64,000 nt of DNA from an uncultured Chloroflexia bacterium (GCA_963746845.1 CAVVCZ010000002.1:64001-128000); one strand, 5' to 3'; shown: positions 14,352 through 36,346, numbered from the stretch's first letter. The notes: generated from the letters alone by a model not told the origin. Translations and numbers: made by a program.

Positions 14352-17300
14352 ATGCCGAGCTGTCCGCAGGTGGCCGTGAGCGACCGGGGCAATTCCCCCG
14401 CTGCGGCTACTGCGGCGAGCGGTTCGCCGATGTCGCCCCGATGCCGGATGTCAGCCGCACGGTCACCTTCCTCACTTCCGATCTGCAGGGCTCAACGGCG
14501 CTCGCCGAGCGGCTCGATCCGGAGACCCTGCGGGAGGTCCTCGACCTCTACTTCGACGACATGCGAGCCGTCTTCGAATTGCGCGGCGCGATCATCGAGA
14601 AGATCATCGGCGATGCCATCCTGGCCGTCTTCGGGCTGAGCGGCTCGCGCGGGGATCACGCCCTTCAGGCCGTCCGAGCGGCGGCCGAAGGCCAGGCGGC
14701 CCAGCAGGCCTTGAACGCGCGACTCGAGGCCCGCTGGGGGGTCCAGCTCGTGGTTCGGACCGGGATCGCCACCGGCCCGCTGGTCGTCAGAGCAGCCAGC
14801 GCCGACGAGCATATCCTGACCGGCGACGTCATTCAGCGCTCTGGCCGGCTCGAGCAGTCGGCGCCGCCCCACGAGGTGCTCCTGGACGAGCCCACGCATG
14901 CGGCCGCCACCGCGCTCGCGACCATCGCGGCCGAGCCGTTCGTCGCGAGACCGAAGACCGCCGCGGCCTCGTCACACGATGCGGCCTTGCCAATCTCGGC
15001 GTTCCGGCTTGTCTCGGTCGATCCGGAACGTGCAGGTCCACCCGGCTCCGCGCCGACCGAGGCAGTCGGCGTCCAGACCTGCCGGAACTGCGGAACGGCG
15101 AACCCCGACGACTTCCGCCTGTGCGGTGGGTGCGGCGGCCAGCTCGGCGTCGCGCATGTCGCGGAGATGAGGAAGACGGTGACCATCGTTTTCGCCTTTC
15201 TGGACGCCCGCGACCTGGCCGGTGAGCCGCTGACCGCAGACGTCCAGCGCGACGTCATGGCGCGTGCATTCGACGCGTCACGCATCGCTCTCGCCCGTCA
15301 CGGCGGCACGATCGAGAAGTTCATCGGCGATGCCGTGATGGCCGTCTTCGGCCTGCCCGTCCGCCACGAGGACGATGCGTTGCGCGCCGTCCGCGCCGCC
15401 CTGGACATGCGCGCGGGCCTGTCGGTCCTGGCCACCGAGCTGGCGCAGGAATCGGCGATCGACTTCGAAGTTGCGATCGGCGTCAACACCGGTGAGGTCA
15501 TCACGGGCGAAGCGAGCCTCGGCCAGCGCCTCGTGACCGGTGACGCCGTCAACGTCGCGGCGCGCCTCGAACAGGCCGCCGCCCCCGGGGAGATTCTCAT
15601 CGGCGACCTGACCGCGAGGCTGGTACGCGAGACCGCGAGACTCGAACAGGTCGAATTGCTCACGCTCAAGGGCAAATCGCAACCCGTCCCCGCTCATCGA
15701 CTCATGGGCGTCCTGGGCGCATCGATCGCCGCCATTCGACCCGCGACTGCCATGGTCGGACGCGAGACCGAGATGCGGCTCCTGACGGATGCGCTCGATG
15801 GGGCCATCGAAACACGTGGCTGTCGCATCGTCACCCTCATCGGTGACGCCGGCGTCGGCAAGACGCGCCTCTCGAAGGAGTTCCTCGAATCTGCCCGAGC
15901 TCATGCCACGATCGTGAGCGGGCGCTGCCTTCCGTATGGCGACGGCATCACCTTCTGGCCCGTCGTCGAGGTCGTCCAGGGCGCCGCGGGCCTGCTCGAT
16001 TCGGACACGCCGGCCAAGGCCATCCGGAAGCTTCGGCGCATCCTCGGTGACAAAGAGGTGGTCGATCGGATCGCGGCGGCCGTCGGCTTGCGCGATGCGC
16101 CGTTCCAGGTCGGCGAGCTCTTCTGGGGGATCCGCCGGTTTCTGGAGATCCTCGCCGCCGGCAAACCGCTGGTGGTTCTGTTCGACGACATCCAGTGGGC
16201 CGAACCGACGTTTCTCGACCTGCTTGGCCACCTGACCGCGAACGTGCGCGACGAGCCGATCCTGCTCTTGTGCATGGCCCGCCATGCGCTTCTGGAGAAG
16301 CAGCCGACGTGGGGCCAGGGGCCGGACGAACGAACCATCGTCCTGTCGCCGCTGTCAGACGCGGATGCTGCGCGCGTGACGGCGAACCTCCTCGGCAAGG
16401 TCGGACTGGCGGATGCGGTTCAGGACCGGGTCGTCGCCGCTGCCGAGGGCAACCCGCTGTTCGTCGAGCAGCTCGTCTCGATGCTCCAGGAAACCGGCAT
16501 GCTGCGGCTCATCGAGGGTCGGTGGGAGCCAGCCGGCGACCTGTCCACGCTGGCCATCCCACCGACCATCCACGCGCTGCTGGCAGCCCGCCTCGACCAG
16601 CTGCCGGAGGGCGAGCGGGCAACCGTCGATCCCGCCTCGGTCATCGGCCTGGTCTTCCCGCAGGTCGCGCTGCAGGCGATCGTCGATGACGACGTCCGCG
16701 ACCAGGTCCCGGAGCGCCTCGACGAGCTCACCACGCGGCAGCTGGTGCGCCCGACGGACCCGGCCGACAGCGAGAACGACGAGTACCGCTTCACCCATTT
16801 GATGATCCGGGACGCGACCTACGCAGGACTCCTGAAGCGCACGAGGGCGCGCCTCCACGAGCGGTTCGTGGCGTGGGCCGACGAGGCCAATCGGGCGACC
16901 GAGCGCGTGACCGAGTTCGAGGAGATCCTCGGCTACCACCTCGAGCAGGCGCATCGCTACCTCTTCGAGCTTGGCCCGCTCGACGAGCACGGGTCGGCCA
17001 TCGGCATCGACGCGTCCGGGCGCCTGGCCTCCGCCGGCCAGCGGGCCTTCGTGCGTGGTGACATGCCGGCCACCGCGAATCTCGTCCGCCGCGCGGTCGA
17101 CCTGCTGCCGGACGATCACGCGGCGAGGCCGAATCTGTTGTTCCAGCTCGGGCTGGCGCTCTGGGAAGTCGGCGAGGGCGAGGCAGCGGACGCCGCCTGC
17201 GCCGGGGCGATCGAGGGCGCGTCGCGGCTGGGAGACGTGGGGCTCGAGACGACCGCCCGGCTGGAGCGCGTCATGAACCAGTACTACGCCGATCCTTCCA

Positions 17301-18277
17301 AAGTCGAGGGCGACATCGAGGCGCAGATCCGCCAGAGCATCGCCATCCTCGAGCGCCTGGGCGACGACGCCGGTCTCGCGCGGGCCTGGCTGTCGATGAG
17401 CGGGGTGCGTATCGTCGGCACCCGCTGGGGCGAGGCCGCAGAGGCAGTCGAGCGGGTCATCGGACACGCGCAGAAGGCGGGCGACCGCGTGCTCGAGATC
17501 CGGGCCGGCCCGAACCTGGCGATGTGCGCGCAGTTCGGTCCGACGCCCGTCCCGGAAGCGATCCGGCTGTGCGAGGAGATCATCGCTCGCTCGACCGGCG
17601 ACCAGAAGGCCGAGGCGGTGACGCTGCGCAGCCTCGCCCACCTCCACGCCAAGCGCGGCGAGTTCGACATTGCCCGCGACGAATATCGGCGGGCGCGTCG
17701 AACGCTCGAGGAGCTCGGCTGGAAGTTCCATGCCGCCCTCACCTCGATCGACTCAGGCCCCATCGAGATGCTGGCCGGCGATCCGGTTGCGGCCGAGGCG
17801 GAGTTGCGACACGACTACGAGGCGCTCGATCGGCTCGGCGACCGCAACTACATCTCGACGGTGGCCGCCTACCTCGCCGAGGCCCTCTGCCAGCAGGGCC
17901 GGTTCGACGACGCGTCCACGATGGCGTCGTTCAGCGCCGATGTCGCAGCGCCCGACGACGTGTATACACAGGTCGCGCTTCGGCGTGTTCGGGGCAAAGT
18001 GCACTCCTGGCTCCGTCGGCACGATGCGGCTGAAGCCGCGTGTCGCGAAGCCGTCGACCTGAGCCGGACCGAGGATGATCCGACGGACCAGGCCAATGCG
18101 CTGTCGGACCTCGCGCTCGTCCTGCGCGCCGCCGGCCGGGATGCAGAGGCGATTGCAGCCGGGACCGAGGCACTGGCGCTGTATGAGCGCAAGGGCAACG
18201 TCGTTTCAGCGGCCCGAACCCGGCAATCCCTCGCAGCCGCCGTCGAGGAGACGGCGCTGACGAGCGACCGTCGCTGA
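14352..18277 (+). CDS. Tandem class III adenylate/guanylate cyclase with zinc ribbons, AAA/STAND-like ATPase and TPR-like C-terminus
   Basis: MPSCPQ[C]GRERPGQFPRCGYCG needs a 1-bp fix near 14369; SDLQGST, EKIIGDA, CRNCG..CGGCG, EKFIGDA, GDAVNVAARL, Walker A GDAGVGKT, FDDIQWA, GNPLF. Confidence 0.92.
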
Positions 18278-18283
18278 CATGAG

Positions 18284-18311
18284 ACAGCGCGCCCGTGGCC
18301 GGGCGCGCTGT
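18284..18311. terminator. Hairpin between convergent genes
   Basis: ACAGCGCGCCCG / CGGGCGCGCTGT perfect 12-bp stem. Confidence 0.7.
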
Positions 18312-18352
18312 GTCTGATGAAGATGGATCCCGCGCGGGGCGGGAAGCAGCAC

Positions 18353-19298
18353 CTACCGCGGATAGCCGGCCGGGTCGAACGTGCCCGGAGGGGCCAGGAC
18401 CCCGAAGAACCCGACGTTGTGCTGGCCGGACTTCTTGAAGAGCACGCACGGCCCGGTCGCGTTCTTGCCGCAGGCCGGGAGCAGCCCGGTGAAGGGAGTC
18501 CCGTCAGCCAGGAAACCGTCCCAGCAGACGTTGAACTGCCCGATGCCCTTGTTCACGAGATTGGACGCGAGCGCAAAGATGATCGTCTTCGGACCGGAGG
18601 CAGTGGTGTTGTGGAACGTCAACACGCCGTTCGAATCGAGCGGAGGGCCTCCGCAGGCGGTCGTCATGGCCGGAATGGCGGGCCCGAAGCCAACACCTGT
18701 GAACGTTCCATCGTCAGAGAACAGGGTCGCGGCTGTAGAGGAACCGTTGAAGACCTGCGTGCACACCACATTGTCCGGACAAGGGGCGATGGGTTGCGTC
18801 TGCGGGATGAAGTCGGCCGTGAAGAAAGTCTCGCCGTCTTCGTAGCTGCACGTTGCGGTGGACGGGGCGCTGGCTTCCAGCTTGTAGAAGCTTGGCGTCC
18901 GTGACGCTGATGTTGAACGTCGCGATGCTCTTCGACGCCTTGGCCGTGTAGGAAGCGCAGGATCGAGGACTCCTCACCGTCGCTCCTGAAGACGTCGAGC
19001 GTCACCGTGGTCCGCGAACACGGATCGGAGCTCGGCAGGATCGTGTTTCCTTCACCACCGCTATGATGGCGACCTGGACGGAGAACGTCTGAAAGGTCAT
19101 CACCGTGTCCGGCGCTGTGATGACCAGGTTGCACTCGGCCGGGCCCTCGCCCTCGCCCTCGCCTACGTAAGCAAGACACGCCGAGGACGCCGAAGCGGCG
19201 TTGGCGATACCGCCGATCGGGATGAGCACGGTTGCGGCCAATGCAAGGGTCACCGCCGCAGCGGACATGCCGCGGCGAACGCGCGAGACTGTGTGCAT
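18353..19298 (-). CDS. Secreted Cys-containing hypothetical protein (several frameshifts)
   Basis: GAGGAGG RBS, signal peptide MHTVSRVRRGMSAAAVTLALAATVLIPIGGIANA; the C-terminal frame ends ..DPAGYPR*. Confidence 0.6.
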
Positions 19299-19628
19299 CG
19301 ACACCCTCCTCGATACCGATCCATGGCGGCCTGCCACCGCGAACACAACAGCCAAACCGTCGGACCCAGGGGTTCCGGTATCAGGCCCCAAGGTACTGCG
19401 AATGTGTTGACAGCTGTCACGCCCGCAACAATGGGCGGTGTGTCCACGCACCACATCGAGGAACCGCCGGTGCCGGCCTGATCAAGCGGGACTGCGCAAG
19501 CAGAATGTGTCGCGAGCTCGGATCCGGTCTCCCGTGCGACTTCCTCGGAGAGACCTCAACTCTGCGCTGCGCCAATTCCGATGAACCAGTTCGGTGCGCG
19601 CCCCCGCGGACCAGGTCGCACCGATTCG

Positions 19629-19703
19629 TGGAGCCGACACTCGGATTTGAACCGAGGACCTGCTGTTTACGAAACAGCTGCTCTACCGCTGAGCTATGTC
19701 GGC
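19629..19703 (-). tRNA. tRNA-Thr(CGT)
   Basis: GCCGACATAGCTCAGCGGTAGAGCAGCTGTTTCGTAAACAGCAGGTCCTCGGTTCAAATCCGAGTGTCGGCTCCA folds as a cloverleaf; anticodon loop TTCGTAA, encoded CCA, TACTCT -10-like box upstream. Confidence 0.97.
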
Positions 19704-21737
19704 GCCGATCAAGAGTAGCCGATGCTGAGAGGACAGCAGGTGTTTGGCTTCGCCGGAACATGCTCGGGTCGTGCTCAGAGCGGTAGCAGAGCGCTCGAAC
19801 AGCTGATGACCGGCTTCGAAGCGCCGAAGCAGCCGGACATGCTCATTACCCTCGGCTCGCTCGACTCACACCCGCCTTTCAAACGGACGAGTCATGCAGA
19901 TGGCCAGGAGGCGCCGGTGCTCGCGCGGTCGAGGGCGATTTCGGCGGTCCAAGCCGGAAAGGAAGGACTCTACCCTAACCGTCTTCGCGTCCGGGTTTAG
20001 GACCACTCAATTGACGGTGGGATCGATGATGGAGGCACGCCACGCGTAGCGCCGCGGCCCGCCACCCGCCAGTGACTCCGGGCCACGAGGGAGTTTCGAT
20101 GACCGACGAGGCGCAACTGACGAGTCCGCGAATCCAACGGCTGCGGCGCGAGATGGAGAGTCGAGGCCCGGCAGCCGTCGATTCGTTCTGGGACGAGGTC
20201 GAAGCCGCGACGACGCCGCTTGTCGAAGCCATCCCCGACGACGACACGGACGTCCTTGTGACTTTCGTTTGGCGCGGAGATTCGGACACGAAGTCCGTTC
20301 GCGTCTGGCATGACGACATGCTCGGGACTACTCCGGCCGAGGCCGCGATGCTCCGGCTCGGCGAGACCAACGTATGGCACAAGACGTTCCGCCTCGCGTC
20401 CGCCCTCCGGTTCGAATACGTCTTCTATCCAAACGATCCTGAGCTGGATGACGAGCCGCTGCCGAGCCCGGAGACGTACGAGGTCGCCCTCCGGCTGGAT
20501 CCGCTTAACCCGAAGCGGTATCTCCTCCCGGACGACGGTGAGCATCCCGAGTGGAACGACTTTTTCGGCGGTTGGTCCAGCTGGGTGAAGCGCGAGCAGT
20601 CGCTCGCGGAGCTGCCGGCGGCGCTTCCCCAGCCCTGGGTGGCAGAGCGCGCCGACGTGGCGAAGGGAATCGTCGACAAGCATCGCTTCGAGAGCGCGAC
20701 TCTCGGCAACACGCGGGCGGTCTACGTCTACACGTCGCCGGGATACGACGCGACCAGCGAATCCACATGGCTCCTCATTCTCTTCGACGCCTGGAGCTAC
20801 CGCGCGATCATCCCGATGCCGACGATCCTCGACAACCTCGTCGCCGATGGTGACATCCCGCCGCTCGCCGCCGTGCTCGTCGACCATCCATCGTTCGACG
20901 AACGGATGCGGGAGCTGTCGTTCGAGGAGCCCGGTCCCGCCTTCGAAACGGCCGTAGCAGACGAGGTCATGCCCTGGATCGGGGAGCGGTACCGCGTTGC
21001 CTCGGACGCGCGACGGGTCATCATCGGTGGTGCCAGCAACGGCGCCGATGCGGCCGCACGGATCGCCGTGGCTCACCCCGAGCTGTTTGGCAACGTGCTC
21101 TCGCAATCGGGGACCTACGGGCGGTCGCCCTCCGGTGACACCGAACCGGAGTGGCTAGCTCGGTGGATTGCCAAATCGCCGCGGCTACCGATCCGGTTCC
21201 ACCTGGAGGCCGGGACGATGGAGAGCGACCCCGGCAGGAGTGGAGTCAGCATTCTCCAGTCGAACCGGCATCTTCGGACGGTCCTCCGCGCTCGCGACTA
21301 CGACGTCCACCTGGTCGAGTTCAGTGGCGGACACCAAATGCTGTGCTGGCAAGGAACCATCCGCGACGCCCTAATGTGGCTCATGTCCGCAGGCACATGA
21401 CGCGCCCATCGGGCTCGCTTCGGAGTGAGGTACGGTGGGGGTCCTCGGTATTCGGTGGTCCGCGTAGCACCGAATTCGCCGGCGACTGTGTCGCGGCCTG
21501 CATTCCCGGATGACAGCGTTGCGGCGATGGCATCGGTATGCGACCGCGCGCGCACACGCCTCACGAACACGGGCGTTTAGTGAGCGGTCTCGGTTGTCCA
21601 GGGCCCGGGGTTAGCGCCAGCGGGCCGCAGCGTCGATCCTAGACGGGCACCCCTCGAAACGAACAGCTGATAAGTGTGCCCGTTTCTATCGACCCGGAAC
21701 GCTTGTAGCACTGCGCAGGGGGCGGGAGACTTACGAA
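19667..21737. mobile_element. Putative integrase-free cassette 1 bounded by TTACGAA cores
   Basis: Direct repeat of the tRNA 5' half at both ends; both ends are homologous to those of 25214-27955. Confidence 0.65.
20099..21400 (+). CDS. Enterochelin esterase (Fes)-like alpha/beta hydrolase
   Basis: VLVTFVWRG, DPLNP, R.VYVYTSPGY, nucleophile GASNG, FGNVLSQSG, FSGGH. Confidence 0.88.
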   Translation: MTDEAQLTSPRIQRLRREMESRGPAAVDSFWDEVEAATTPLVEAIPDDDTDVLVTFVWRGDSDTKSVRVWHDDMLGTTPAEAAMLRLGETNVWHKTFRLASALRFEYVFYPNDPELDDEPLPSPETYEVALRLDPLNPKRYLLPDDGEHPEWNDFFGGWSSWVKREQSLAELPAALPQPWVAERADVAKGIVDKHRFESATLGNTRAVYVYTSPGYDATSESTWLLILFDAWSYRAIIPMPTILDNLVADGDIPPLAAVLVDHPSFDERMRELSFEEPGPAFETAVADEVMPWIGERYRVASDARRVIIGGASNGADAAARIAVAHPELFGNVLSQSGTYGRSPSGDTEPEWLARWIAKSPRLPIRFHLEAGTMESDPGRSGVSILQSNRHLRTVLRARDYDVHLVEFSGGHQMLCWQGTIRDALMWLMSAGT

Positions 21738-21767
21738 ACAGCTGCTCTACCGCTGAGCTATGTCGGC
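21731..21767 (-). repeat. 5' half of tRNA-Thr(CGT), copy B
   Basis: 37/37 identical to 19667-19703; begins exactly at the anticodon loop. Confidence 0.95.
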
Positions 21768-21770
21768 GCC

Positions 21771-22214
21771 GACAAGGAGGAGAGGCCCGTCCCGCAGGTC
21801 ATCCACACTGAGCCCGACTTCGCCGCCGCGCTCGAGCCATCGGAGTCGTGGATGCTGGACACGCTCGTCGTCCAGACGCACGCGGTTCTCGAGCGGACAC
21901 GCGAGATCTTCGAGCATTCGATGCCGGCGGACACTGCTGTCGAACCACGTCTGGCGGGCAAGCCGTTCACGTTCGACCCAGCCGTGGCGGAACCGTGCCC
22001 CGCGCCGACCCTGTTCGTCATGGGTCGGCAGGACCGTTACGTCGGATACAAGAGGGCCTGGTCGATCCTGGACGACTTCCCGCGCGCGACGTACGCGGTG
22101 CTGGATCGGGCCGGCCACCTGCTCGATGTCGAGCAGTTCACGCTCCAGCACGCGCTGGTGAACGAGTGGCTCGATCGGGTCGAGGAGTCCGTCGCGGAGG
22201 CTATTCCGGCCTAG
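21771..22214 (+). pseudogene. 5'-truncated alpha/beta hydrolase
   Basis: PTLFVMGRQD, LDRAGH; the frame stays open back to the tRNA-half junction with no start codon or nucleophile motif. Confidence 0.7.
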
Positions 22215-22263
22215 GCGATCCGATCCGGCGTCATCGTCCCGTCGGTGACCCTGAGCCGTCCGG

Positions 22264-24694
22264 TCAGTCCAGCCCGGCGTTGCGGGCCATTACGGCGATC
22301 TCGACGCGCGTTCGCGCGCCGAGCTTCGACTTGATGTTGGCGACGTGGGTCGACGCCGTCTTCTTGCTGATGACGAATGACTCCGCGATCTCGCCGTCCG
22401 ACATCCCGGAGGCAACGAGCGCGATGACCTCGACCTCGCGCGGCGTGAGGTCGAATCGACCGATCGAGGGCCTCGCCACGGGCGGTCGGTCTTCGAGATC
22501 GACAGAATCGACCTCGGTCATGGCGAGATCAAGAGCCTCTTCGAGGCCCCGCGCCTCTCCGATCACCCAGTGCCGATGAAACCGGACCGGACCGAGCGCC
22601 TTCTGGGCGCTCGCGTAACCGGGCTCGATCTTGTCCTTCGCGAAGGGCGGCGACATGTGCGCTCGAGCTCGCTCAATGGCCGCCCAGCTTTCGACCGCCA
22701 CGTGCATCTGCCCGGCGGGCTCAAGCCATTCCGCTGCCGTCGATCAGCGCAAGAACGCGCTCCCGATTGTTGCCTGATGTGGCCGACGATGTCGACGCCA
22801 TCGCGAAGATGCATTCGCGCCACCGCCAGGTCGCCCGCCTGGGCCATCGTCCGAGCCATGGCGAACGTCGACCATGAAACGAGGGCCTTATCGCCTGTCT
22901 CGCTGAAGATCCTCTCGCTTTCGGTGAGTGATTTCATCGCCGCGCCATAGTCGCCGAGGGAACGGTCCAGGAATCCCAGCTGGAGCAGCGCGTACGCCAA
23001 CGCCCACGCGTCCTCCGCCGTCGCGCGCGACGCGGATGGCGTCGTCGAAGCACGTCCGGGCCAGCACAAGCTCGCCGCGGCGGCGGGCGATCTCCCCTTG
23101 CGTGACGCGGATAGCGACCAGCGGCCCCGCAACGCCGGCCCGGAGCGCATGCACCTTCGCCTCATCCAGCCGGGCCGCGATCTGGTCGAAGTCCACAGTC
23201 GCGTCGTCGAGGGCGACGCGGACGAGCCAATGCATCGCCTCGGCCATCCCGAGCTCGTCCAGACACTCGGTTGCTGCGAGCCAGGCTCGCCTCGAACATG
23301 GCGAGGCTGCGCTCCCGGAGCCCCAGCTCTCTGGCCATACAACCCGCCCGACTGAGCAGCCGGGCCCGAATTGCTGGCCGCGCTTTGGGTCCAACATCAC
23401 GCGCCGTCTCGAGCCAAGACAGGCCTTCGCGGATCCCGCCTGCGCTGTACCAGAATCGGTCCTCGAGCGCCGCAGCGAGCCGGGCAAGGGAGTCGGCGTC
23501 TCCCGTCCCGTGGGCCCAGGCAAGGGCCGCTCGCAGGTTCGCCTGATCGGCGACGAGCTGGCGCATTCGCGGGATCTGCTCCGCCGCGCGCGTCGATCGA
23601 TCCGCGTCCTCCGCCATCGCCAGGAAGTACGCGAGGTGACGGTCGCGAACGACCTTCGTCCTCACCGGGCTCAACCGGTCGAGGGCGAACTCCCGGATGG
23701 TTTCGAGCAACCCGAATCGCGGTTCCCCATCGGGACCGGGCCGGACGGTCACGAGGCTGTGGTCGACCATGCGCTCGAGCATCGACATCGGCGTCGGCGC
23801 CCCGTGTGTCCGCCGGCCATCGGCAACGACCGCCTCGCAGGCCGCGAGGGTGAATCCACCGACGAAGACGCCGAGGGCCGCAAAGAACTGCTGCTCCAGG
23901 CTGCCGAGGAGCTTGACGCTCCACTCGATCGTGGCGCGGACGGTCTGTTGTCGGAGCGGGACGTCGAGCGGCCCATCGCTCAGCAGCGGAAGCAGCGGCT
24001 GGAGCTGGACAAGCAGGGAGGCCGGCGACCGGGACCGGGTGCGCGCGGCCGCGAGCTCGATGGCGAGCGGAAGACCGTCGAGGCGGACGCAGATCTCGGA
24101 GATCGCGCGGGCGTTCTCGTCAGTGAATGCGAAGCGCGGATCCATCGACCGCGCTCGCTCCACGAACAGGCGGACGGCGTCGACCTGTTCCAGCCGGCCG
24201 AGCGATCCCAGGTCCTCATCGCGCGGTAGCGCCATCGAACCGAGTCGGTACAGCTGCTCACCCTGGACGTGGAGAGCCGCACGGCTCGTCGCGAGGACGA
24301 TCAGGGTCGGCCAGCGCGTCATCAGTCGGGCGATGATCGGGGCTGCCGCCGGAAGCTGCTCGAGGTTGTCGAGAATCAGGCGAATCCGTCGGTGACCAAA
24401 CTGCTCGGGAAGCGTTTCGCTCAGGTCGCCCTCAACCGGCTCCCCGACACCCAGAGCCGTCGCGATCGTCGCCAGAATCAAGTCTGGGTCTGTGATTGGG
24501 GCGAGGTCAACGAAGACGAACCCAGCGTCGTCGTCGGACTGGTTCGCGGCGAGTTCGATCGCCAGGCGTGTCTTGCCGCTGCCACCGGGCCCGGTCACCG
24601 TGACGAGACGACCGGTATTGAGCAGTCCGGCCAGGGCGACGAGATCCAGGTCGCGTCCGATGAAGGACGACACGGGCGAGGGGAGGCCGTTCAT
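22264..24694 (-). CDS. ATPase-TPR-LuxR transcriptional regulator (several frameshifts)
   Basis: LPSPVSSFIGR, GPGGSGKTRLA, LDNLE, LDGLPLAIELAA and C-terminal LTPREVEV..TASTHVANIKSKLG, split over four ORFs. Confidence 0.85.
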
Positions 24695-24965
24695 CCTGAC
24701 CAGGCTGGCCCAGTGCTCGGTCCTGGCTCGATCGTTCCAACCCGCATTGCTCCGTCCACTGCGTTTGGAGTCTACGCTCGCCTGCGGTCGGCCTCCGGAG
24801 CCGAAGTTCGCAGGTCCGAATCGAGTCGGGCACGCCATGCTGCGTCGGCTCCGAGGTCCAACGACGAGCGAGGTACCGCGACACCCCGGTTCGTCAACAT
24901 GACGGAGCATTGCTGCCATCGATGCGATGTACGCGAGGCGGTGACACCCACACGGGGACGGCCAC

Positions 24966-25182
24966 TTCCCCAACCGGGCCAGCCTCATCCGACTTGTCGG
25001 AATGGTCCTCGCCGAGCAGGACGATGAGTGGCAGGACGGCCGGCGCTACTTCCGGCCCGAGACGATGGCCCTCATCGACGGCGCCATCGATCACGAGGAG
25101 GTGAGCCCAGGGTTGCTGATGGCGAGCTGATCGACCAGGCTCGAGGGTGACGCCCTGTTACACCACGTCCCGGGACTTGACC
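24966..25182 (+). mobile_element. IS256-family remnant (transposase C-terminus plus right end)
   Basis: Hand translation FPNRASLIRLVGMVLAEQDDEWQDGRRYF...* (stop at 25130), followed by TTACACCACGTCCCGGGACTTGAC, resembling IS256-family termini. Confidence 0.8.
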
Positions 25183-25217
25183 CATAGTCATCAGCTCTAC
25201 CGAGCATGCGAACGTCG

Positions 25218-25250
25218 GAAACAGCTGCTCTACCGCTGAGCTATGTCGGC
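25218..25250 (-). repeat. 5' half of tRNA-Thr(CGT), copy C, with about 110 bp flank homologous to 19704-19807
   Basis: 33/33 identical to 19671-19703; flank GCCGATCAAG..TAGCCGATGCT...GTGCTCAGAGCGGTAGCA..CTCGAACAGCTGAT is shared. Confidence 0.93.
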
Positions 25251-25431
25251 GCCGATCAAGGATAGCCGATGCTCAACGCACAGCGGCTGTTCGCCCTCAC
25301 GGGAGCATGCCGGCGATCGTGCTCAGAGCGGTAGCACAGCTGCTCGAACAGCTGATAAGTGTGTCTACGCCGATGACTGTCGGGCACCCTTGAGAGGTCC
25401 CGAACCGCACGACCGTTCGATCTAGGCGCAA

Positions 25432-25827
25432 TCAGCGCGGGGCGACGGCGGCCAGCCCGATGAGCGCCGCCCCCTCGATCATCCGATCGTCGTAGGTCAC
25501 GATCGTGTCGAGGTCGTCACCTAGCGTCAGAGCGGTCGCGAGATGGATGGCATCGAGCGTGCGCAGTATTCGAGGCTCGAGGATGCCGGCCGCATCGAGG
25601 ATCCGATCGTCGATGGCGATCAGGTCGACACGCCGAAGGCCCTCGCGGGCGATGGCGAGAGCGTCAGGCCCCAGGTGGCGGACCGCTCGGAGGGCTTCGG
25701 CCCGGAGGAGGGAAGACGACACGCGGCGAGCCTCGTGCGTCGCGAGGAATGCTCGGAGCTCGGTCGACTGCGCCTCGGTGACGACCAGCTTGACGAACGC
25801 CGAGCTATCGAGATAGACGGCCTTCAA
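25432..25827 (-). CDS. vapC: VapC PIN-domain toxin
   Basis: YLDSSAFVKL, LRTLDAIHLATA, VTYDDR. Confidence 0.92.
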   Translation of the reverse strand: MKAVYLDSSAFVKLVVTEAQSTELRAFLATHEARRVSSSLLRAEALRAVRHLGPDALAIAREGLRRVDLIAIDDRILDAAGILEPRILRTLDAIHLATALTLGDDLDTIVTYDDRMIEGAALIGLAAVAPR

Positions 25828-26087
25828 TCCGTCCGCGCCTTCGACACGAGGTCGGACGGAGCGGGTGAATCGGCCGGCAGCTGGACCGTGGGGAGGTCGA
25901 GCAGGTCAGCCTCGGCGCGACGCAGCAGTCCTTCGCGCTCGAGCTTGGCCAGACCGGTTGGCATCGATCGCAGCAGGACCGCGACCGGACGTCCTCGATC
26001 AGTGACCTCGATCGTCTCGCCCGCGGCGACTCTTCGCAGGATGGCACTGGCCTGACGCCGAAGCTCGCGCACACCGACACGTTCCAT
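25824..26087 (-). CDS. vapB: Phd/YefM-family antitoxin
   Basis: MERVGVRELR..AS.ILRRV..GETIEVTDRGRPVA; overlaps vapC by 4 nt. Confidence 0.9.
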   Translation of the reverse strand: MERVGVRELRRQASAILRRVAAGETIEVTDRGRPVAVLLRSMPTGLAKLEREGLLRRAEADLLDLPTVQLPADSPAPSDLVSKARTD

Positions 26088-26104
26088 GTGCGACATAGTA
26101 GCAC
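26088..26104. promoter_or_regulatory. Probable TA autoregulatory operator
   Basis: Imperfect palindrome GTGCGAC-ATA-GTAGCAC directly next to the antitoxin start. Confidence 0.55.
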
Positions 26105-26213
26105 TTGTCAGGACGACGTGGCGTAAGCGGGTGTCACTCCGGAGACCCCAATCCTTCCGGGGGGAGCACGGGCTCCCCCTCGGATTGAAGCGTGCCTTGC
26201 GTCGTGTGGCCGA

Positions 26214-27176
26214 TCAGGGAGACGGGGACGCGCCCGATGGGGACGGACTGGTTGCCGGCGGTTCGATCTTGATGGAAGCGACGATGGCCTCGAGCTCGGC
26301 CAGCTCCTCGGCAGAGCTGCTCGCCTGATGCCTGGCAACGACGGCGAAGCGATCGCCGGCGACGTCGACGACATAGACGACATCGGTCGAACCGACGGCA
26401 CTGCAGCACAGGCCGCCGGACTCATCCGGGCCCGGGTCCGGCCAGAACCTGATGATTCCCCCGTCGCATTTCGTGACATCGAGGTCGGCCGGGACGGTCA
26501 ACTCGATCCGCTTGGCCGGGAAGCCCCCCAGGGTGACGTCGGTGGCGGCCGACGCGACCCGGCCCTTCTGCGCCACCAGCAAGCTCGCAAGCTCATCGAT
26601 CGTCGTTCCGGCGTCGACCAGCGTCGCATCGTGATGGCAGGCGTCGGTGTAGACATGAGTGACGGTCCAGATAGCGAGTAGGACCTCGCCAGATCCAGTG
26701 AACGGCGGCATGCTCGCCGCAGCGGCCACGCGATTCCTATAGACGAATACTCCTCCCTCAGCCGTCGCCCATCCCTCGGGTACGGTGACGGTGAACCGCG
26801 CTCCCCCCACGGGCGTGTAGTACGCAATCCAATCATACGTCCCCGGTTCGAGGGCGCCAGCCGCGGGGAGGAGCGACGGTGACGGGCTCGGCGCGAGAGT
26901 GGCCGACGGCGCCGGCGTCGGGCCGGAGCCGGGGCCGGTGCCCGGTGTGAAGACGGTCAGGGCCGCGAAGCCGACGATCGCGACGACCGCGATCCCGGCG
27001 GCGAGCCGCAGCGGAACGGACATTGGTGGGGTCCTCCACGGGATCCGGAGATCCCGCGATTGTGGTGTCGTCTTGATGGCCAGGAAGACGGCGTCGACCA
27101 CCGGCCGAGGGGTCCGGTCGGACCCGTCTGCCAGCCAGTCGTCCACGGCGCGTTCGAAGGCTCGGTCGTCGCTCAT
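26214..27176 (-). CDS. Membrane-anchored anti-sigma-like protein
   Basis: ATGA overlap with the ECF gene; MSDDRAFERAVDDWLADG, TM helix, Pro linker, LEPGTY...IVASI domain. Confidence 0.75.
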   Translation of the reverse strand: MSDDRAFERAVDDWLADGSDRTPRPVVDAVFLAIKTTPQSRDLRIPWRTPPMSVPLRLAAGIAVVAIVGFAALTVFTPGTGPGSGPTPAPSATLAPSPSPSLLPAAGALEPGTYDWIAYYTPVGGARFTVTVPEGWATAEGGVFVYRNRVAAAASMPPFTGSGEVLLAIWTVTHVYTDACHHDATLVDAGTTIDELASLLVAQKGRVASAATDVTLGGFPAKRIELTVPADLDVTKCDGGIIRFWPDPGPDESGGLCCSAVGSTDVVYVVDVAGDRFAVVARHQASSSAEELAELEAIVASIKIEPPATSPSPSGASPSP

Positions 27177-27727
27177 GACAGTCGCCCTTCCTGGACCTTG
27201 ATCGGCGCCCGGCCCGCCTCGAAAGCGGACCGAAGTGCGCGGGTGGCGTAGTGCAGTCGCGAGCGGGCGGTTCCGTCGGGGATGCCGAGCGTCTCGGCCA
27301 CTGCCACGAGGGGCAGGCCCACGTGGTGGTGGAGGACGAACACCGCCCGCTGGTCGAGCGGTAGCCGGCGGAAAGCCTGCTCCAACTCGTCGCGATTGGA
27401 GATCGATTGGTAAGGGTCCACGTCGTCCGCCCGATCGATTGGGAGAACGCGCACGGTCGATGCCCATCTCCGGTTGTGCGGAGCAACCGCGTAGCAAGCG
27501 TTGACGAGGATCCGGTAGGCCCATGCCTCGAAGCGGTCTGGCTCCCGCAGATTCGGCAGCTTCCGCCAAATGGTCACAAGGGCGTTCTGCAGAACGTCCT
27601 CGGCGAGGCCGGGATCGCGCAGGATGCGTCGAGCGATCCCGAACAGCGTGTCGCTGACCTGGTGCACCAGATCCTCGAATGCCGCCTGGTCGCCCGAGCG
27701 CGCCCGCTCGACGAGGTCTCGGTCCAT
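27173..27727 (-). CDS. ECF RNA polymerase sigma factor
   Basis: LVERARSGD..AF, AEDVLQ, FEAWAYRI, GIPDGTARSRLH. Confidence 0.93.
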   Translation of the reverse strand: MDRDLVERARSGDQAAFEDLVHQVSDTLFGIARRILRDPGLAEDVLQNALVTIWRKLPNLREPDRFEAWAYRILVNACYAVAPHNRRWASTVRVLPIDRADDVDPYQSISNRDELEQAFRRLPLDQRAVFVLHHHVGLPLVAVAETLGIPDGTARSRLHYATRALRSAFEAGRAPIKVQEGRLS

Positions 27728-27948
27728 GGGTCTCCGGCGATCAGCCGTGGTCGAGACGACCGCGGTCTATCGAGCATGAGGGTACGGAGCGCCGGAATCG
27801 TTCAGTGCGGGTAGTCAGGGTCGGCTCGGACGCTAGCGGCCCGGAGCGTCGATCCTGGGCGGACCACCCCAAGAATCGAATAGCTGATAAGTGTGCCCGT
27901 GTGTATCGGGCCGCCACTCGGGGTAGCACTGCGCACAGGGCGGGAGAC

Positions 27949-27985
27949 TTACGAAACAGCTGCTCTACCGCTGAGCTATGTCGGC
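27949..27985 (-). repeat. 5' half of tRNA-Thr(CGT), copy D
   Basis: 37/37 identical to 19667-19703; preceded by about 130 bp homologous to the sequence before copy B. Confidence 0.95.
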
Positions 27986-28080
27986 GCCGCCCACGAATAG
28001 CCGATGGTCACAGACATCCGCCCGACACCGCCCGGTCGCTCGACGCCGGGTGTCGTGCGTCGTTGCCGTCGAGGACGGGC

Positions 28081-28125
28081 TTGACACGGCCCCGACAACG
28101 TCGTATATATCGACCATCGATATAT
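28081..28125 (+). promoter_or_regulatory. Sigma70 promoter with overlapping palindromic (PadR) operator
   Basis: TTGACA (28081)-17 bp-TATATA (28104); perfect inverted repeat ATATATCGA-CCA-TCGATATAT at 28105-28125. Confidence 0.8.
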
Positions 28126-28150
28126 CGACGATCGTAAGAGTGGCAACCCG

Positions 28151-28474
28151 ATGGAAGCCAGGATCCCCGAATTCGGACGGTTCACCGAACCGTCCCTGCT
28201 CATCCTCGTCAGCCTGAGTGACGGGCCGAAGCACGGCTACGCCATCATGCAGGACGTCGAGCGGGGCACCGGCCGGCCCATGGGCCCCGGGACGCTGTAC
28301 GCGGCCCTCGTGCGCCTCGAGGAACAGGGCCTGATCGAGGCCTTGACGCCGGAAGAACGACGCCGGCCCTACCGACTGACCGCGGTCGGGGCGACGAACC
28401 TCGCGCAGCAGCTCAGGGATCTCTCGGCCTTCGCCCAACGGGGTCTCAGCCAGCTCGGCGAGCCCGAGCCATGA
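28151..28474 (+). CDS. PadR family transcriptional regulator
   Basis: LILVSL..GPKHGYAI, GPGTLY.AL.RLE..GLI, RRRPYRLT. Confidence 0.93.
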   Translation: MEARIPEFGRFTEPSLLILVSLSDGPKHGYAIMQDVERGTGRPMGPGTLYAALVRLEEQGLIEALTPEERRRPYRLTAVGATNLAQQLRDLSAFAQRGLSQLGEPEP

Positions 28475-29229
28475 GTTCCCTCCTCATCCGTCTCTACCCG
28501 GCCCGCTGGCGCGCCCGGTACGGCGACGAATTCGAGGTCCTCCTCGAAGAGCGGCCGCTCGGACCGTACGACGTGGCGGACATCCTCCTCGGCGCCCTCG
28601 ACGCGCACCTCCGGCTGCGTGGACAGGGAGCCGGCGTTCGTGAAGGAAGGAGTTTCTCCATGTCGCTCCGGATCGGTGGCATCGCCGCAATCGTCGGCGC
28701 TTCTCTGATCGTCATCGTCATCGCCTTGACCGGCGGCCACGCCGAAGCCTCCGAGAATGCCCCCTCGATCGCGCTGCTCGTCGCGTTGGCCGCTTTCCTG
28801 GTGGCGCTCACCGGGATGAGCGCGTTCCAGGCTCGTTCGAATCCGTGGCTTGTCTGGACCGCGTTCGGGTTGACGGCCGTCGGGACGCTTGTCATCTTCA
28901 TCGCGGGCCTCAGGGATCTCGCCGGCCTCGGCCCAACGGATTGGCGGGACGGCCTTCTCCCCATCGGAGCAGTCACTGCGGCCCTTGGCTCGGCGACGTT
29001 CGGGATCGCGACGTACCGCGTATCCGTTCTCTCGCGCAAGGGGGCATTGGCCCTCGCGATCGGCCCGTTGGTCGGGCTCATTGGCGCCATCGCCGTGGGT
29101 CAGGATCTGTGGGGGCTCGGCATGCTCCTCCTCCTCGTCGGGATCGTCGGCTTCCTGGCCGGTTGGTTCACGCTCGGCGTGGCGGCGATTCGTCTGGATC
29201 GAGGATCGTCGGCGCTCAGGTCCGCCTGA
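28471..29229 (+). CDS. PadR-associated membrane protein
   Basis: LIRLYPARWRARYGDEF N-terminus followed by about six TM helices. Confidence 0.8.
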   Translation: MSSLLIRLYPARWRARYGDEFEVLLEERPLGPYDVADILLGALDAHLRLRGQGAGVREGRSFSMSLRIGGIAAIVGASLIVIVIALTGGHAEASENAPSIALLVALAAFLVALTGMSAFQARSNPWLVWTAFGLTAVGTLVIFIAGLRDLAGLGPTDWRDGLLPIGAVTAALGSATFGIATYRVSVLSRKGALALAIGPLVGLIGAIAVGQDLWGLGMLLLLVGIVGFLAGWFTLGVAAIRLDRGSSALRSA

Positions 29230-29302
29230 GGCGCGAAGCTCGAGAAATCCGTAGCCGATCTGAAGGTCGCCGTCAGCCGGCGGGTTCGAACTTGAATGCC
29301 GC

Positions 29303-30625
29303 TCAGCAGGCGCCGGGCTCTTCGCTCTCGGGCGGCGCGCTGTACCCCGGAACTGCATAGTCGTTCCCACTCGAGTCCTGCCAGACGCAGACTTCGTCGA
29401 CGGTTCCGTTCCGCCGCACGTGGAGCTTGGCGGCCACGTGGCTGGCGCTACCGTCCGGGGAGTCACCGCACGCGTAGGTGATGTCCCAGCCGTCGCCCCG
29501 CGCCTTGGGTTCGATCCACGCCAACGCGCCCGGCCCCTGCGTGTCGCTTGCCTGGAACCCACTCAGATACGGATGGGTCTCTGCGACCGCGGCGAGCGCC
29601 TCATCGAGCGAGTCGATCGGCGGTGTGACCTCGTCCTCGATCGGCGGCCGTCCCTTCGACGAAGGATGAAGCCACCCCACATCCGGGGCATAGTCGGTCG
29701 CCACGACCCGGCCGTCGACGATCACGGATGCCCATGCGTAGTAGCGCGCAGGCAGGCGCGCGAGCGTGCGCGCAAGCACTTCTGCGCGACTGGGGCTGCT
29801 ACCCGCAACGTCGCCTCCGCCGCCGAACTCGAGCTGCGCCCCCGCCAGGCCCCGCATCCAGGTCGGTGGGTTGCCGTACGGATGACTTGGGCCCGAGTGA
29901 TGGGACGGTGAACAGGACGGGCCCTTGCTGGCCTCGTTCTGCGCGGCCGGAAAGAGGGCGCCGAAGAAGGTATCGCCGACCATCGGCGTCTTGACGATCC
30001 CCTGCGGGGACTCGAAGTAGTCAAGCGAGTTCAGGACCGATGACTCCGTTCGACCGGTGTGGAGGTCGGTGATCCACGCACGGTGTGGCAACTCCTCGGC
30101 GGGTCCTGGGATGTTGTCCATTCCGAACCGCCGGTCCCCAATACCGTCGCCGTCGTCGTCGACGACGAGTCCGTACGCGATCCACTGCTCGGTCGGATCC
30201 ACCTTCGGCGCCCCGGGGACGGAGACCACCACGGCGTTGTTGTGCCCGAACCCCACCCGGCGGATGTCGACCCACGGGAACGCACCGGACTCGGTGTCGC
30301 CCGTTGGATCCGCGTAGTCCTCGCCTTCAACGGAGATCGGCACGATGGTCGCGGGTTCGGCGGGCTCGGTCCGGACCGGCGCCGGCCAATCCTCCTTCAG
30401 GCTTGCCTGGGTCCAGATCACCGGGGCCGCCGTCGGGCTCGGGCGGGTCGACGCAGCGGCGGACGGCCGGACCACGCTCGGCGCGGCCGCGGTCGAGGCC
30501 TGCGCCTTCGAGGCGGGGTTTGGGGTCTCCGCTTCCTGCCCGGCTGTGCACGCGGTTGTCAGGATCGCGGCAACCACGACCGCAGCGGCCATCGGCGACA
30601 CAGATCGGCTGAACGAGCGCTTCAT
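29303..30625 (-). CDS. Lipoprotein of unknown function
   Basis: Lipobox LTTAC, Pro/Ala linker, DPTGD and DDDGDGIGD motifs; GGAAGGA RBS. Confidence 0.75.
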   Translation of the reverse strand: MKRSFSRSVSPMAAAVVVAAILTTACTAGQEAETPNPASKAQASTAAAPSVVRPSAAASTRPSPTAAPVIWTQASLKEDWPAPVRTEPAEPATIVPISVEGEDYADPTGDTESGAFPWVDIRRVGFGHNNAVVVSVPGAPKVDPTEQWIAYGLVVDDDGDGIGDRRFGMDNIPGPAEELPHRAWITDLHTGRTESSVLNSLDYFESPQGIVKTPMVGDTFFGALFPAAQNEASKGPSCSPSHHSGPSHPYGNPPTWMRGLAGAQLEFGGGGDVAGSSPSRAEVLARTLARLPARYYAWASVIVDGRVVATDYAPDVGWLHPSSKGRPPIEDEVTPPIDSLDEALAAVAETHPYLSGFQASDTQGPGALAWIEPKARGDGWDITYACGDSPDGSASHVAAKLHVRRNGTVDEVCVWQDSSGNDYAVPGYSAPPESEEPGAC

Positions 30626-30648
30626 GTCCTTCCTTCCACGTGCGGCGG

Positions 30649-31707
30649 TCATGGGTTAGCCGATGGGCCGCTGCCCGGAGCACGGAGATTGGTCTCTTGG
30701 GTCTGCTCCGGACGCGCACTGGGTGGCGTTGCCGAACAGATCGGATCACGGGCACACCGGTACGCCTCGAGCTCCTCGATCGGAACGGACGCGACGCCCA
30801 CGGGTGCTGTCAGGTCGAAGAGCGCCGCCGGCTGCTCGCCGAACGTGATCTCCGTGACCTCGATGGTTTGGAACTGGCCCGGGATGGGCTGATCGGCATC
30901 GTCGACCAGCGGCGCCCGGGCGCGGAGGATCAGCCGCGTCTCGACATCGAGCCAGAGGTCGCCGCCGCCACACGTGAACTGGTGGGCGGGGCGCCCGGCA
31001 ACGGATTCGACGCCGACGTACCGCCAGCCCGTCGCGGCAGTCCCGCTGCCGGCTTCGTCGGGGTCGCGAGTCAGCTCGCAGCCCGGCAGCCGGTCGAACG
31101 TGATCCCGCCGAGCCCGAGCCCGGAGTGGATGTACCCCCGGGGGTCCTCGCCGATGGCCTCGGGGTTCACGACCCAGACCTTCTCCGACCCGACGGTCTC
31201 CAGTGAGCCGACGCTCATGCCGCTGAGGATGCGGTACGTCTCAGGCTTCGTCGCATCGGCCGACGCGAACCGCTCGAAGCGGACCGCACCCGACCGATCC
31301 ACATACATGCGGCTCTTGACTGAACCGTTGTCGATCCGCGTCATCGCGAGCGGCGGCAGCTCCGGCAGCCGATCGTAGCTGGAGAGGACGAACGCCTGGA
31401 CGTCAGCTGGCGGCTCGATGCTCAGCTCGGTGATTGCATCCCGTTGGAGGAGGCGCAGCGCCCCGACCGCCGCGGCACTCGCGAACGCCAGCGCGACCAG
31501 CAGTGCGGCAGCGATGAGGACCATCCGCCGCTGGGCGATCGGGTCCGCGTCGCTGAGCGCGCCGAGGAACGAAGGCATGGCCCGCTGCCGGGTGGTGGTC
31601 CCGGCTGCCACGAGAACCCGCTCGCGCAGGCCGGCCTGGGCGCGTTCCGGAACGTGGGCACGAAGCGCCCTGGAGATCTGGGCGTCGGTCAGGCGTGGAG
31701 CGTTCAT
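30649..31707 (-). CDS. Membrane-anchored anti-sigma-like protein
   Basis: ATGA overlap with the ECF gene; DAQISRALRAHVPERA, TM helix, extracellular domain with LWLDVETRLILR (LolA/RseB-like pattern). Confidence 0.7.
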   Translation of the reverse strand: MNAPRLTDAQISRALRAHVPERAQAGLRERVLVAAGTTTRQRAMPSFLGALSDADPIAQRRMVLIAAALLVALAFASAAAVGALRLLQRDAITELSIEPPADVQAFVLSSYDRLPELPPLAMTRIDNGSVKSRMYVDRSGAVRFERFASADATKPETYRILSGMSVGSLETVGSEKVWVVNPEAIGEDPRGYIHSGLGLGGITFDRLPGCELTRDPDEAGSGTAATGWRYVGVESVAGRPAHQFTCGGGDLWLDVETRLILRARAPLVDDADQPIPGQFQTIEVTEITFGEQPAALFDLTAPVGVASVPIEELEAYRCARDPICSATPPSARPEQTQETNLRAPGSGPSANP

Positions 31708-32297: not shown

Positions 32298-32631
32298 GTC
32301 ACCCTCGGATCATGACCGGCGCGCGTGTCGATCGCGTTGTCGCCGGTCGATCGCTGCTGTCAGGTGTCCAGACGCCACCGATCGCGTGACGGTTGGGTCG
32401 TGACCGAGAACCGACTCCGCACGACCTCGTCATGCGGGCATCTGGGCCTGTAACCCGACCGATCCGTATGAACGTGCCAAGGCCAGCGCGCGATCCGTGT
32501 GGACGGGCTGCACCGGACATCTGGTCCAATCGTCCGCTGGCACTTCCGTACTGGTTGAAGGCTGATGTACCCTCCGGGCCCGGCGGCGGGGACTGCTGTC
32601 TGCGCCCGCCGCCATCGTCGGGGGCATCGCC

Positions 32632-33468: not shown

Positions 33469-33472
33469 CGCG

Positions 33473-34903: not shown

Positions 34904-34934
34904 CGACGGCCGACGACCGACCGTCGCCACCTGC

Positions 34935-36326: not shown

Positions 36327-36346
36327 GATGCACCCCGGAGGCTGTC

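Follow-up and report, generated by a model that had tools for sequence, protein, structure and literature searches.

Mobile elements that target tRNA genes usually replace the 3' end of the gene, whose native promoter is kept. The anticodon loop is reportedly one of the sublocations that tyrosine-integrase elements use within tRNA genes, as Williams is said to have described in 2002, and cis-mobilizable elements (CIMEs) and tandem accretion were reportedly defined by Pavlovic et al. in 2004 for ICESt1-related elements of Streptococcus thermophilus. Here we describe an array of gene cassettes beside the tRNA-Thr(CGT) gene of an uncultured soil member of the Limnocylindria (Chloroflexota), which lies in a 64,000-nucleotide stretch (the window, G000:C2:64001-128000) of a 3.56-Mb metagenome-assembled genome (MAG) in 12 contigs that is 92% complete (G000, the source genome). 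An initial annotation, made from the sequence alone, had read part of this locus as an integron-like accretion array of integrase-free cassettes delimited by 5' halves of the tRNA gene.

Several described systems resemble the locus. In Dehalococcoides, according to sections of the report by McMurdie et al. (2011, PMC3146451), tandem islands at ssrA lie between direct t(m)RNA repeats with a conserved adjacent motif; 15 of the islands are given there without an integration module, and the authors propose them to be CIMEs. Tycheposons of Prochlorococcus, as outlined in parts of the work of Hackl et al. (10.1101/2020.12.28.424599), have tRNA-specific integrases and leave partial tRNAs between elements, with newcomers pushing older elements outward. 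Passages of a review on archaeal tyrosine recombinases (PMC8371274) treat the pTN3-like integrases of Thermococcales, which belong to archaeal plasmids and viruses, and state that bacterial tRNA genes, when rebuilt, with very few exceptions retain the promoter they had. The clade analyzed here does the reverse of textbook 3'-end replacement, and its leftovers are mostly compact, cargo-only units with complete att sites.

We consider it probable, at roughly 80%, that the array consists of non-autonomous derivatives of integrative elements that carry the tRNA 5' half and integrated serially into the anticodon loop of tRNA-Thr(CGT). The window from 14.1 to 38.1 kb would then be an integration hotspot at the single tRNA-Thr(CGT) gene of this genome. 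Its 5' side would hold a tandem array of four units (A, E3, B, and E1), integrase-less derivatives of elements of ~4-5 kb whose attP would be framed by two arms of ~130 bp each, P' and P; going from P' to P, the anticodon loop (the 7-bp overlap region) and the tRNA 5' half would lie between them, and the P arm would include the promoter region of the tRNA. Autonomous relatives would encode, right after the P arm, an integrase of 311-332 aa, a Xer-like tyrosine recombinase. Strand exchange in the loop would rebuild the tRNA from the incoming 5' half and promoter while displacing the earlier 5' half and its unit outward, and repeated events of this kind would give rise to the array. A mirror-image family carrying the 3' half would act on the same loop from the other side.

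The anatomy of the locus can be read directly (Table 1). ARAGORN finds tRNA-Thr(CGT) as the sole tRNA of the window, and Rfam, applied to positions 13000-43000, recognizes tRNA-Thr as the only RNA family, so that the arms contain no other known RNA family. The anticodon loop, TTACGAA, occupies 19667-19673 on the plus strand. The displaced 5'-half copies already annotated on the 5' side of the gene were recovered at the same positions by BLAST against the whole genome, and the claim that units A and B enclose unrelated cargo in common end arms also stands. Their left arms are 81.1% identical over 106 nt (19704-19807 versus 25251-25356) and their right arms 81.6% over 125 nt (21615-21737 versus 27831-27955), with BLAST E values of 1e-21 to 1e-27 and no further copy in the 3.56-Mb genome. 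In both right arms the 17-nt motif GAACAGCTGATAAGTGT precedes the loop by ~70 nt; in the left arm of B it follows the loop by ~130 nt, and in the left arm of A it is degenerate. As for the cargo, Pfam bears out the esterase of A and the PIN/Phd pair and extracytoplasmic function (ECF) sigma factor of B, whereas the anti-sigma factor is assigned by position alone. The extent of the array had been drawn too narrowly: it spans 14095-38093, with a mirror-image family on the 3' side of the tRNA, and the fifth 5'-half copy, the 3'-half fragment, and the decayed unit E3 were all absent from the initial annotation. A hidden Markov model (HMM) of the junction detected no remnants beyond 38037-38094 when run on positions 38000-64000 and 1-14200 of the window, and copy 5, at which the detectable array probably ends distally, is probably also the oldest of the displaced copies.

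The window had also been described as lacking an integrase, which agrees with our searches. The tyrosine recombinase family PF00589 has five matches in the genome, two full-length Xer-like genes on contig C4 and three fragments elsewhere, and none on the contig of the window. A tblastn search of the source genome with four integrases of the family linked to the array below matched only the two Xer-like genes on C4, and a hidden integrase pseudogene in the window was rejected on this basis. A serine recombinase as the mover was likewise rejected, as PF00239 and PF07508 have no matches in the source genome or in three array-bearing relatives (G005, G016, and G009).

Repeat identity begins exactly at TTACGAA in 5'-type junctions and ends exactly after TTACGAA in 3'-type junctions, so that the boundaries of both types meet in the 7-nt anticodon loop, where tyrosine integrases often cross over. 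Since the loop is the only sequence common to both attP designs and attB, we infer that it is the position of the crossover. The 3'-half fragment of the window is the outer boundary of a 3'-type unit and derives from the mirror-image family, which carries the 3' half and uses the same loop from the opposite side. The flank to the right of the window's fragment can be aligned with 3'-type junctions in G005 and G016, whose own 3'-half fragments (95797 and 98901 in G005, 21348 in G016) are, like that of the window, followed by a conserved arm and in these two genomes are also preceded by one. As we read the alignments, the 3'-type arm motif ACAGTTAGCAGGTCTTC and the 5'-type motif, taken in reverse complement, agree at 14 of their 17 positions. 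The motifs lie at about -135, -73, and +60 from the loop in the 3' type and at +130 and -70 in the 5' type, a spacing that makes the two attP designs roughly mirror images around the dyad-symmetric anticodon arm.

The junction, which consists of the right arm, TTACGAA, the 5' half, and the left arm in this order, is directly seen to recur with different cargo in many relatives, as the initial annotation had expected of the arms. Among 41 related genomes searched with the right arm of A plus the 5' half, full-length arm matches were found in G005, G016, G012, G009, and G013. G005 carries an intact tRNA with at least 10 junction copies that reach 82 kb outward, and the opposite side of this tRNA holds two 3'-half fragments. 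When 23 junctions are aligned, the 5' half is flanked to the left and to the right by ~130 nt of conserved sequence, and conservation ends with the arms; the outermost copy of each genome retains only the tRNA-proximal box, without the cassette left-arm motif, as the upstream region originally present in that genome would be expected to do. An exact-pattern scan of a one-genome-per-species collection yielded 58 stretches, the titles of which mostly name Chloroflexota, Limnocylindria, or Limnocylindrales MAGs with a few other labels, and a scan of the same kind on metagenome contigs gave at least 120 stretches with the junction. In 80 metagenome loci, 117 junction-HMM matches were obtained, 52 of them spanning both arms. 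Two metagenome contigs, L166 (1240 nt) and L242 (8025 nt), have the junction pattern at both ends and may be single cassettes cut by assembly or circles.

The 38 inter-junction intervals in genome loci, counted without four duplicate loci (L046, L060, L061, and L078), range from 388 to 29,922 bp and are at most 5.3 kb long in 32 cases. Their predicted genes are divided evenly between the two directions (78 versus 78). In 70 proteins predicted from the short intervals, among which cassette B is represented a single time, Pfam recognizes 67 families, most commonly PD40 (6), ECF sigma domains (5-6), GerE (4), TetR (4), PIN (3), and Cupin (3). No replication-module family is among the best 25 of these 67, and no recombination or transfer genes were found by Pfam either in the units of the window or in the cargo tally, again for the best 25 of 67 families. 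Perfect 5'-half copies of the same tRNA, 37-40 nt long and spaced 1.6-3.1 kb apart, are also present in three genomes of a second family of the order, in which genomes measure 1.0-1.4 Mb and the arm sequences are the family's own. The right arms of this second family contain a triple GTTGGG repeat (L163 at 2095 and 5040, L164 at 9111). They also repeat ACCTGCTGTTT of the tRNA at a distance of ~50 nt ahead of the loop, which amounts to an extra core half-site (L163, L164).

A tyrosine recombinase tied to the same arms, which the initial annotation had suggested looking for, is present in relatives, where the link between arms and integrase is directly observed. In G189, 159 bp separate an intact 332-aa integrase gene from the 5' end of the tRNA-Thr(CGT) gene. 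The spacer between the two matches the cassette junction HMM with an E value of 4e-18, including GCACAACGCTCGAATAGCTGATGATTGT; the final conserved block in it, the left-arm motif of the cassettes, immediately precedes the start codon. With the integrases on the 5' side of tRNA-Val and tRNA-Ala genes the G189 integrase shares 57-59% identity, and with the integrase on the 3' side of tRNA-Thr only 50%; it nests in the 5'-side clade, which points to two integrase lineages that use tRNA-Thr from opposite sides. The metagenome contig L184 carries an intact tRNA, a left arm of the G189 type, and the first 97 aa of the G189 integrase at 91% identity, after which the sequence is unrelated and the catalytic domain is gone; 4.75 kb from the loop stands a right arm of the canonical type with the 5' half. 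L184 thus shows what appears to be an intermediate between an integrase-bearing element and an integrase-less cassette, and the cassettes accordingly look like elements that may have lost the gene just inside the P arm. The integrase-bearing elements that could be measured are 4.0-4.75 kb long, including L184 with its truncated integrase. As in CIMEs, therefore, the att sites of the cassettes correspond to those of an autonomous relative, by the HMM match of the G189 spacer and by both arms of L184.

The integrase family extends well beyond tRNA-Thr. A custom tyrosine-recombinase HMM run on 7,734 open reading frames from the window and the collected loci gave a single strong match near the Thr site, a 311-aa integrase in G017 that lies directly 3' of an intact tRNA with two 3'-type motifs in between, and one weak, degenerate match near that site in L031. 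Among 151 genomes sampled from the family, 55 have homologues of this G017 protein, and clear members occur (at least 47% identity, near full length) in 6 of 43 genomes of the genus. Of 41 integrase loci examined, four have no tRNA within 300 bp and one match is too short; in the remaining 36, the integrase is on the 5' side of the tRNA in 30 and on the 3' side in 6, with its N-terminus always nearest the tRNA (29 of 35 if the unpublished locus L122 of genome G121, a 5'-side row, is left out). Besides Thr, the tRNAs used are those for Pro, Lys, Met, Arg, Val, Ala, and Gly. Integrases adjoin the Pro and Arg genes at their 5' side, whereas tRNA-Gly(tcc), like tRNA-Thr(CGT), is used from both sides (L098 and L107 versus L108 and L109). 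In a quick maximum-likelihood tree (IQ-TREE), 27 of the 30 5'-side integrases form one clade with a Shimodaira-Hasegawa-like approximate likelihood ratio test support of 92, and integrase clades follow tRNA identity and docking side. The side label changes twice on this tree compared with a mean of 5.7 changes in shuffled labels, and none of 500 shuffles was as low, which demonstrates clustering only, as related integrases share labels by kinship. The assignment to the 5' type was checked at the far end for two elements of G012, and the other 5'-side rows are typed by gene position alone. In these two, a perfect copy of tRNA nucleotides 1-41 lies 4.0 kb upstream of tRNA-Val, and a perfect 38-nt 5'-half copy lies 4.4 kb upstream of tRNA-Ala, each with the integrase inside, so that attP does carry the 5' half, as the initial annotation had proposed. 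The family integrases combine PF00589 with a SAM-like N domain, have no extra arm-binding domain, and keep the R, K, HxxR, W, and Y catalytic residues. They score far under the NCBIfam cut-offs for XerC, XerD, and XerA, and reach 37 bits on the integron-integrase model versus a cut-off of 265.

Comparison of cassette order between relatives, another proposal of the initial annotation, revealed a locus that differs between species in content and order rather than being invariant. Cassette B (2,733-2,736 bp) is directly seen to be nearly the same in four species representatives (G000, G016, L037, and L052), with pairwise identities of 98.9-99.2%, compared to 93-94% and 89% for the homologous flanks of G000 and G016 and 81% for those of G000 and L037. 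Counted outward from the tRNA, cassette B occupies the first place in L052, where it adjoins the intact gene, the second in G016, and the third in the window; in L037 it is internal. The 4-kb block that is distal to the decayed copy 5 in the window lies distal to B in G016 and proximal to it in L037, and is missing in L052. The most distal 5'-half copies are also the most decayed (38045 in the window, 10866 in G005), which fits growth from the tRNA side. The idea that each insertion rebuilds the tRNA and pushes older units outward is supported as far as structure goes: the decay of distal copies agrees with it, but the order calls for more than accretion at the tRNA end. The left arm would supply the tRNA promoter in such an insertion, and mobilization of the integrase-less units in trans is plausible, with the 99% identity of cassette B in four species as indirect evidence; the source genome encodes none of these integrases.

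Several results weigh against this reading. The order of cassettes in G000, G016, L037, and L052 is not explained by tRNA-proximal accretion alone. Neither clear members nor any intact integrase of the family were found in the array-bearing genomes G000, G005, G016, G009, and G013 (92, 64, 92, 64, and 73% complete, respectively), which leaves present-day movement unsupported, and integrase remnants near Thr junctions are limited to 2 of 80 metagenome loci and 1 of ~58 genome loci. G189, the only genome with an intact 5'-type Thr integrase, has no distal 5'-half copy within 19 kb. The junction pattern has no match among the viral contigs of IMG/VR. A scan of positions 19550-20150 gave no sigma-70-type promoter sites and no terminators, although a consensus scan of this kind is uninformative for this phylum. 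Read-level data consisted of Logan contigs from four soil metagenome runs, which at low depth cover units A, E3, and B in part; most of the joints listed in them have sides of ~21 nt and probably come from other organisms. Record 9 of run X2 (955 nt, depth 4.45) joins 21294-21730 to 19667-20184, which is the predicted circle or tandem junction of unit A. This contig does not discriminate, because the 37-nt repeat leaves every one of its 31-mers present in the linear array, and it may be a graph artefact.

How far the cassettes still move can be read in more than one way. We put forward tentatively, and at somewhat below even odds, that the integrase-less cassette rather than the integrase-bearing element is the main mobile unit, moved by rare 'driver' integrases that dock 5' of tRNA genes and may excise or insert any segment between two junctions, so that soil Limnocylindria would share a community pool of 1-5 kb cassettes. 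The lack of an integrase in the array-bearing genomes and an order permuted beyond simple accretion would also suit units that are old, integrase-laid scars, now gained, lost, reordered, and spread, without any site-specific event, by homologous recombination between the ~300-bp junctions after DNA uptake; so would the 37-75 nt of perfect identity and the arms of 80-97% identity that flank the units. We nevertheless regard such a history as unlikely. The ~130-bp arms are conserved in dozens of cassettes with unrelated cargo and their conservation ends at the arms, which argues for selection on att function, and the high-identity tract of cassette B starts and stops at junctions.

The host's own XerC/XerD-like pair might instead move the cassettes, in the manner of integrative mobile elements exploiting Xer (IMEX) at dif. 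Two conserved Xer-like genes are present in every genome examined and are the only intact tyrosine recombinases in the source genome, and the dedicated integrases are themselves Xer-like and have no arm-binding domain. Since the arm motifs adjoin the dedicated integrase genes, which are only 27-30% identical to the Xer pair, since the site is a tRNA anticodon arm rather than dif, and since the integrase clades follow tRNA identity and docking side, this is very improbable. An origin of the repeats in misassembly, or as the termini of an insertion sequence (IS) or miniature inverted-repeat transposable element (MITE), is hardly credible, despite the capacity of MAG assemblies to collapse or duplicate repeats and the Mutator-family transposase fragment in E3. 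The same architecture appears in many independent assemblies, including contigs of 0.5-2 Mb, and the Logan contigs from the four soil runs cover parts of A, E3, and B. Moreover, the repeats are direct, confined to one locus, without inverted ends, and bounded by the anticodon loop, and in relatives the arms lie beside integrase genes. Serial integration of non-autonomous, 5'-half-carrying elements thus remains our preferred explanation of the array.

Table 1. Features of the tRNA-Thr(CGT) locus, in positions of the window.
Feature	Position	Strand	Evidence and remarks
Displaced 3' half of tRNA-Thr(CGT)	14095-14139	-	42/45 identical to tRNA positions 1-45 on plus strand; stops at anticodon loop
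Decayed 3'-type unit E0	14140-19628		1.3 kb without family match besides regulator gene
E0 regulator, 1372 aa (zinc ribbon, adenylate/guanylate cyclase, AAA_16, TPR)	14159-18277	+	Pfam; sole recognizable cargo
Intact tRNA-Thr(CGT)	19629-19703	-	Only CGT isoacceptor gene found in genome (ARAGORN, Rfam)
Unit A left (P) arm	19704-19815		Conserved tRNA-proximal box TAGCCGATG; degenerate copy of motif GAACAGCTGATAA
Unit A cargo: enterochelin-esterase-like hydrolase	20072-21400	+	PF00756 4e-17, PF11806 2.5e-11
Unit A right (P') arm	21600-21730		Motifs GAACAGCTGATAAGTGT (21661) and GTAGCACTGCGCA (21705); ends in GGGAGAC
Displaced 5'-half copy 2 (loop + 5' half)	21731-21767	-	37/37 identical (BLAST, whole genome)
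Decayed unit E3	21768-25217		No recognizable arms; only start of left flank resembles other junctions
E3 broken LuxR-type regulator	GerE 22264-22707, TPR 22563-23342, AAA 23162-24988	- (all)	Pfam
E3 C-terminal fragment of Mutator-family (IS256-like) transposase	24945-25127	+	Last 26 profile positions of PF00872, E 1.5e-5
Displaced 5'-half copy 3	25218-25250	-	33/33 identical; loop partly lost, GTCGGAA for TTACGAA
Unit B left (P) arm	25251-25365		Motif GAACAGCTGATAAGTGT at 25346
Unit B cargo as a whole	25432-27727	-	Pfam
Unit B: VapC-like PIN toxin	25432-25827	-	Pfam
Unit B: Phd/YefM antitoxin	25824-26096	-	Pfam
Unit B: putative membrane anti-sigma factor	26214-27176	-	No Pfam family; assigned by position and ATGA overlap only
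Unit B: ECF sigma factor	27173-27727	-	Pfam
Unit B right (P') arm	27815-27948		97% identical to G016 copy
Displaced 5'-half copy 4	27949-27985	-	37/37 identical; upstream region without cassette left-arm motif
Unit E1 (10.1 kb)	27986-38044		PadR + membrane protein, ECF sigma, ParA-like, GGDEF, CorA, AHSA1, ArsR, DUF899 (Pfam)
Decayed 5'-half copy 5	38045-38093	-	25/28 over 38045-38072, upstream box to 38093; junction HMM E 3e-11

The remaining units are less regular than A and B. The transposase fragment of E3 occupies the right end of the unit, which has lost its right arm and part of the loop; the decay of the unit, with its broken regulator and transposase remnant, accounts for this loss and for the damage to the loop at 25214-25217. 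Unit E1 has no internal junction by the junction HMM, and parts of it are placed elsewhere relative to cassette B in G016. An AT-rich, operator-like near-palindrome (TATATATCGACCATCGATATATCGACGATCG, 28085-28135) lies just upstream of its PadR gene (28151). On the other side of the tRNA, E0 is judged to be degenerate because the arm motif CAGTTAGCAGGTCTTCG has no match at up to two mismatches in the source genome.

Elsewhere in the source genome, a copy of the 13-mer GTAGCACTGCGCA at G000:C6:43506, near weak PF00589 matches, was considered and taken as a chance occurrence, as it lies in a low-GC island without a tRNA. This low-GC stretch with weak integrase fragments (G000:C6:43300-45627) is probably an unrelated decayed island. 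ARAGORN also reports a tRNA with a four-letter anticodon (ccgg) at G000:C5:346543-346631 and several calls of about 80-100 nt that are overlong for their type (Ala 94 nt, Glu 97 nt, Arg 100 nt); these odd calls could be false calls, introns, or long variable arms.

If the units still move, the Chloroflexota of soil, which are abundant and uncultured, would share a cassette economy of regulators, toxin-antitoxin pairs, hydrolases, and transporters, which would explain gene exchange in genomes with almost no recognizable mobile elements. Were the cassette indeed the main mobile unit, the system would represent integron-like gene capture on tRNA genes, with each cassette bringing a working promoter and the 5' half for an essential tRNA. 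In practical terms, the ~300-bp junction is a marker of flexible gene content in metagenomes, and the two-sided use of a single anticodon loop offers a clean natural experiment in the reading of symmetric core sites by tyrosine recombinases.

A literature search on Limnocylindria integrases returned nothing on these elements by title or abstract, and the locus is best placed by comparison with the systems named at the outset. With tyrosine-integrase elements of tRNA genes it shares direct repeats of a partial tRNA and a boundary at the 7-nt anticodon loop with its dyad-symmetric stem. Such elements keep the integrase next to the att site, whereas the window and its contig have none and the relatives G189 and G012 do. 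Usual elements supply the 3' part of the gene; here the repeated part is the 5' half plus upstream sequence, and a 3' type occupies the other side of the tRNA. An IS or MITE would have inverted ends, a target-site duplication, and scattered copies, in contrast to the direct arms at a single locus. The likeness to integrons, part of the initial annotation, extends to recombinase-less cassettes at one fixed site with a common recombination site at each boundary, and beyond that is an analogy only. Integrons have a platform of intI, attI, and Pc, promoterless cassettes in a single orientation, and folded attC sites, whereas this contig has no tyrosine recombinase, the cassette genes are split 78 versus 78 and include their own regulators, and the att site is a double-stranded sequence of ~300 bp.

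CIMEs and accretion come nearer, in that units without recombination genes lie between att sites of an autonomous relative and form tandem arrays at a regenerated site. The autonomous relatives of CIMEs are integrative and conjugative elements, whereas those found here are 4-5 kb long and carry an integrase and little else; the att sites here contain the tRNA 5' half and promoter, the arrays reach at least 10 units, and mobilization is putative. The Dehalococcoides islands belong to the same phylum and, in the sections cited above, use DsiB, a serine recombinase, together with the 3' end of the ssrA gene and a repeat of 20 bp, in contrast to the Xer-like tyrosine integrase, anticodon loop, 37-nt 5' half, and ~130-bp arms of the present system. 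Tycheposons, in the parts of their description cited, likewise form islands that grow from the tRNA-proximal end; they are 10-20 kb long and carry an integrase and a replication module, of which no family appears among the best 25 of 67 here. Compared to the pTN3-like integrases, the bacterial clade described here docks on the tRNA 5' side as a rule (30/36). The principle, comprising accretion, CIMEs, and partial tRNAs, is thus already known from CIMEs, ssrA islands, tycheposons, and pTN3. The differences lie in a bacterial clade that docks on the 5' side as a rule, the use of both sides of one anticodon loop, and small units with intact two-armed att sites that far outnumber the autonomous elements.

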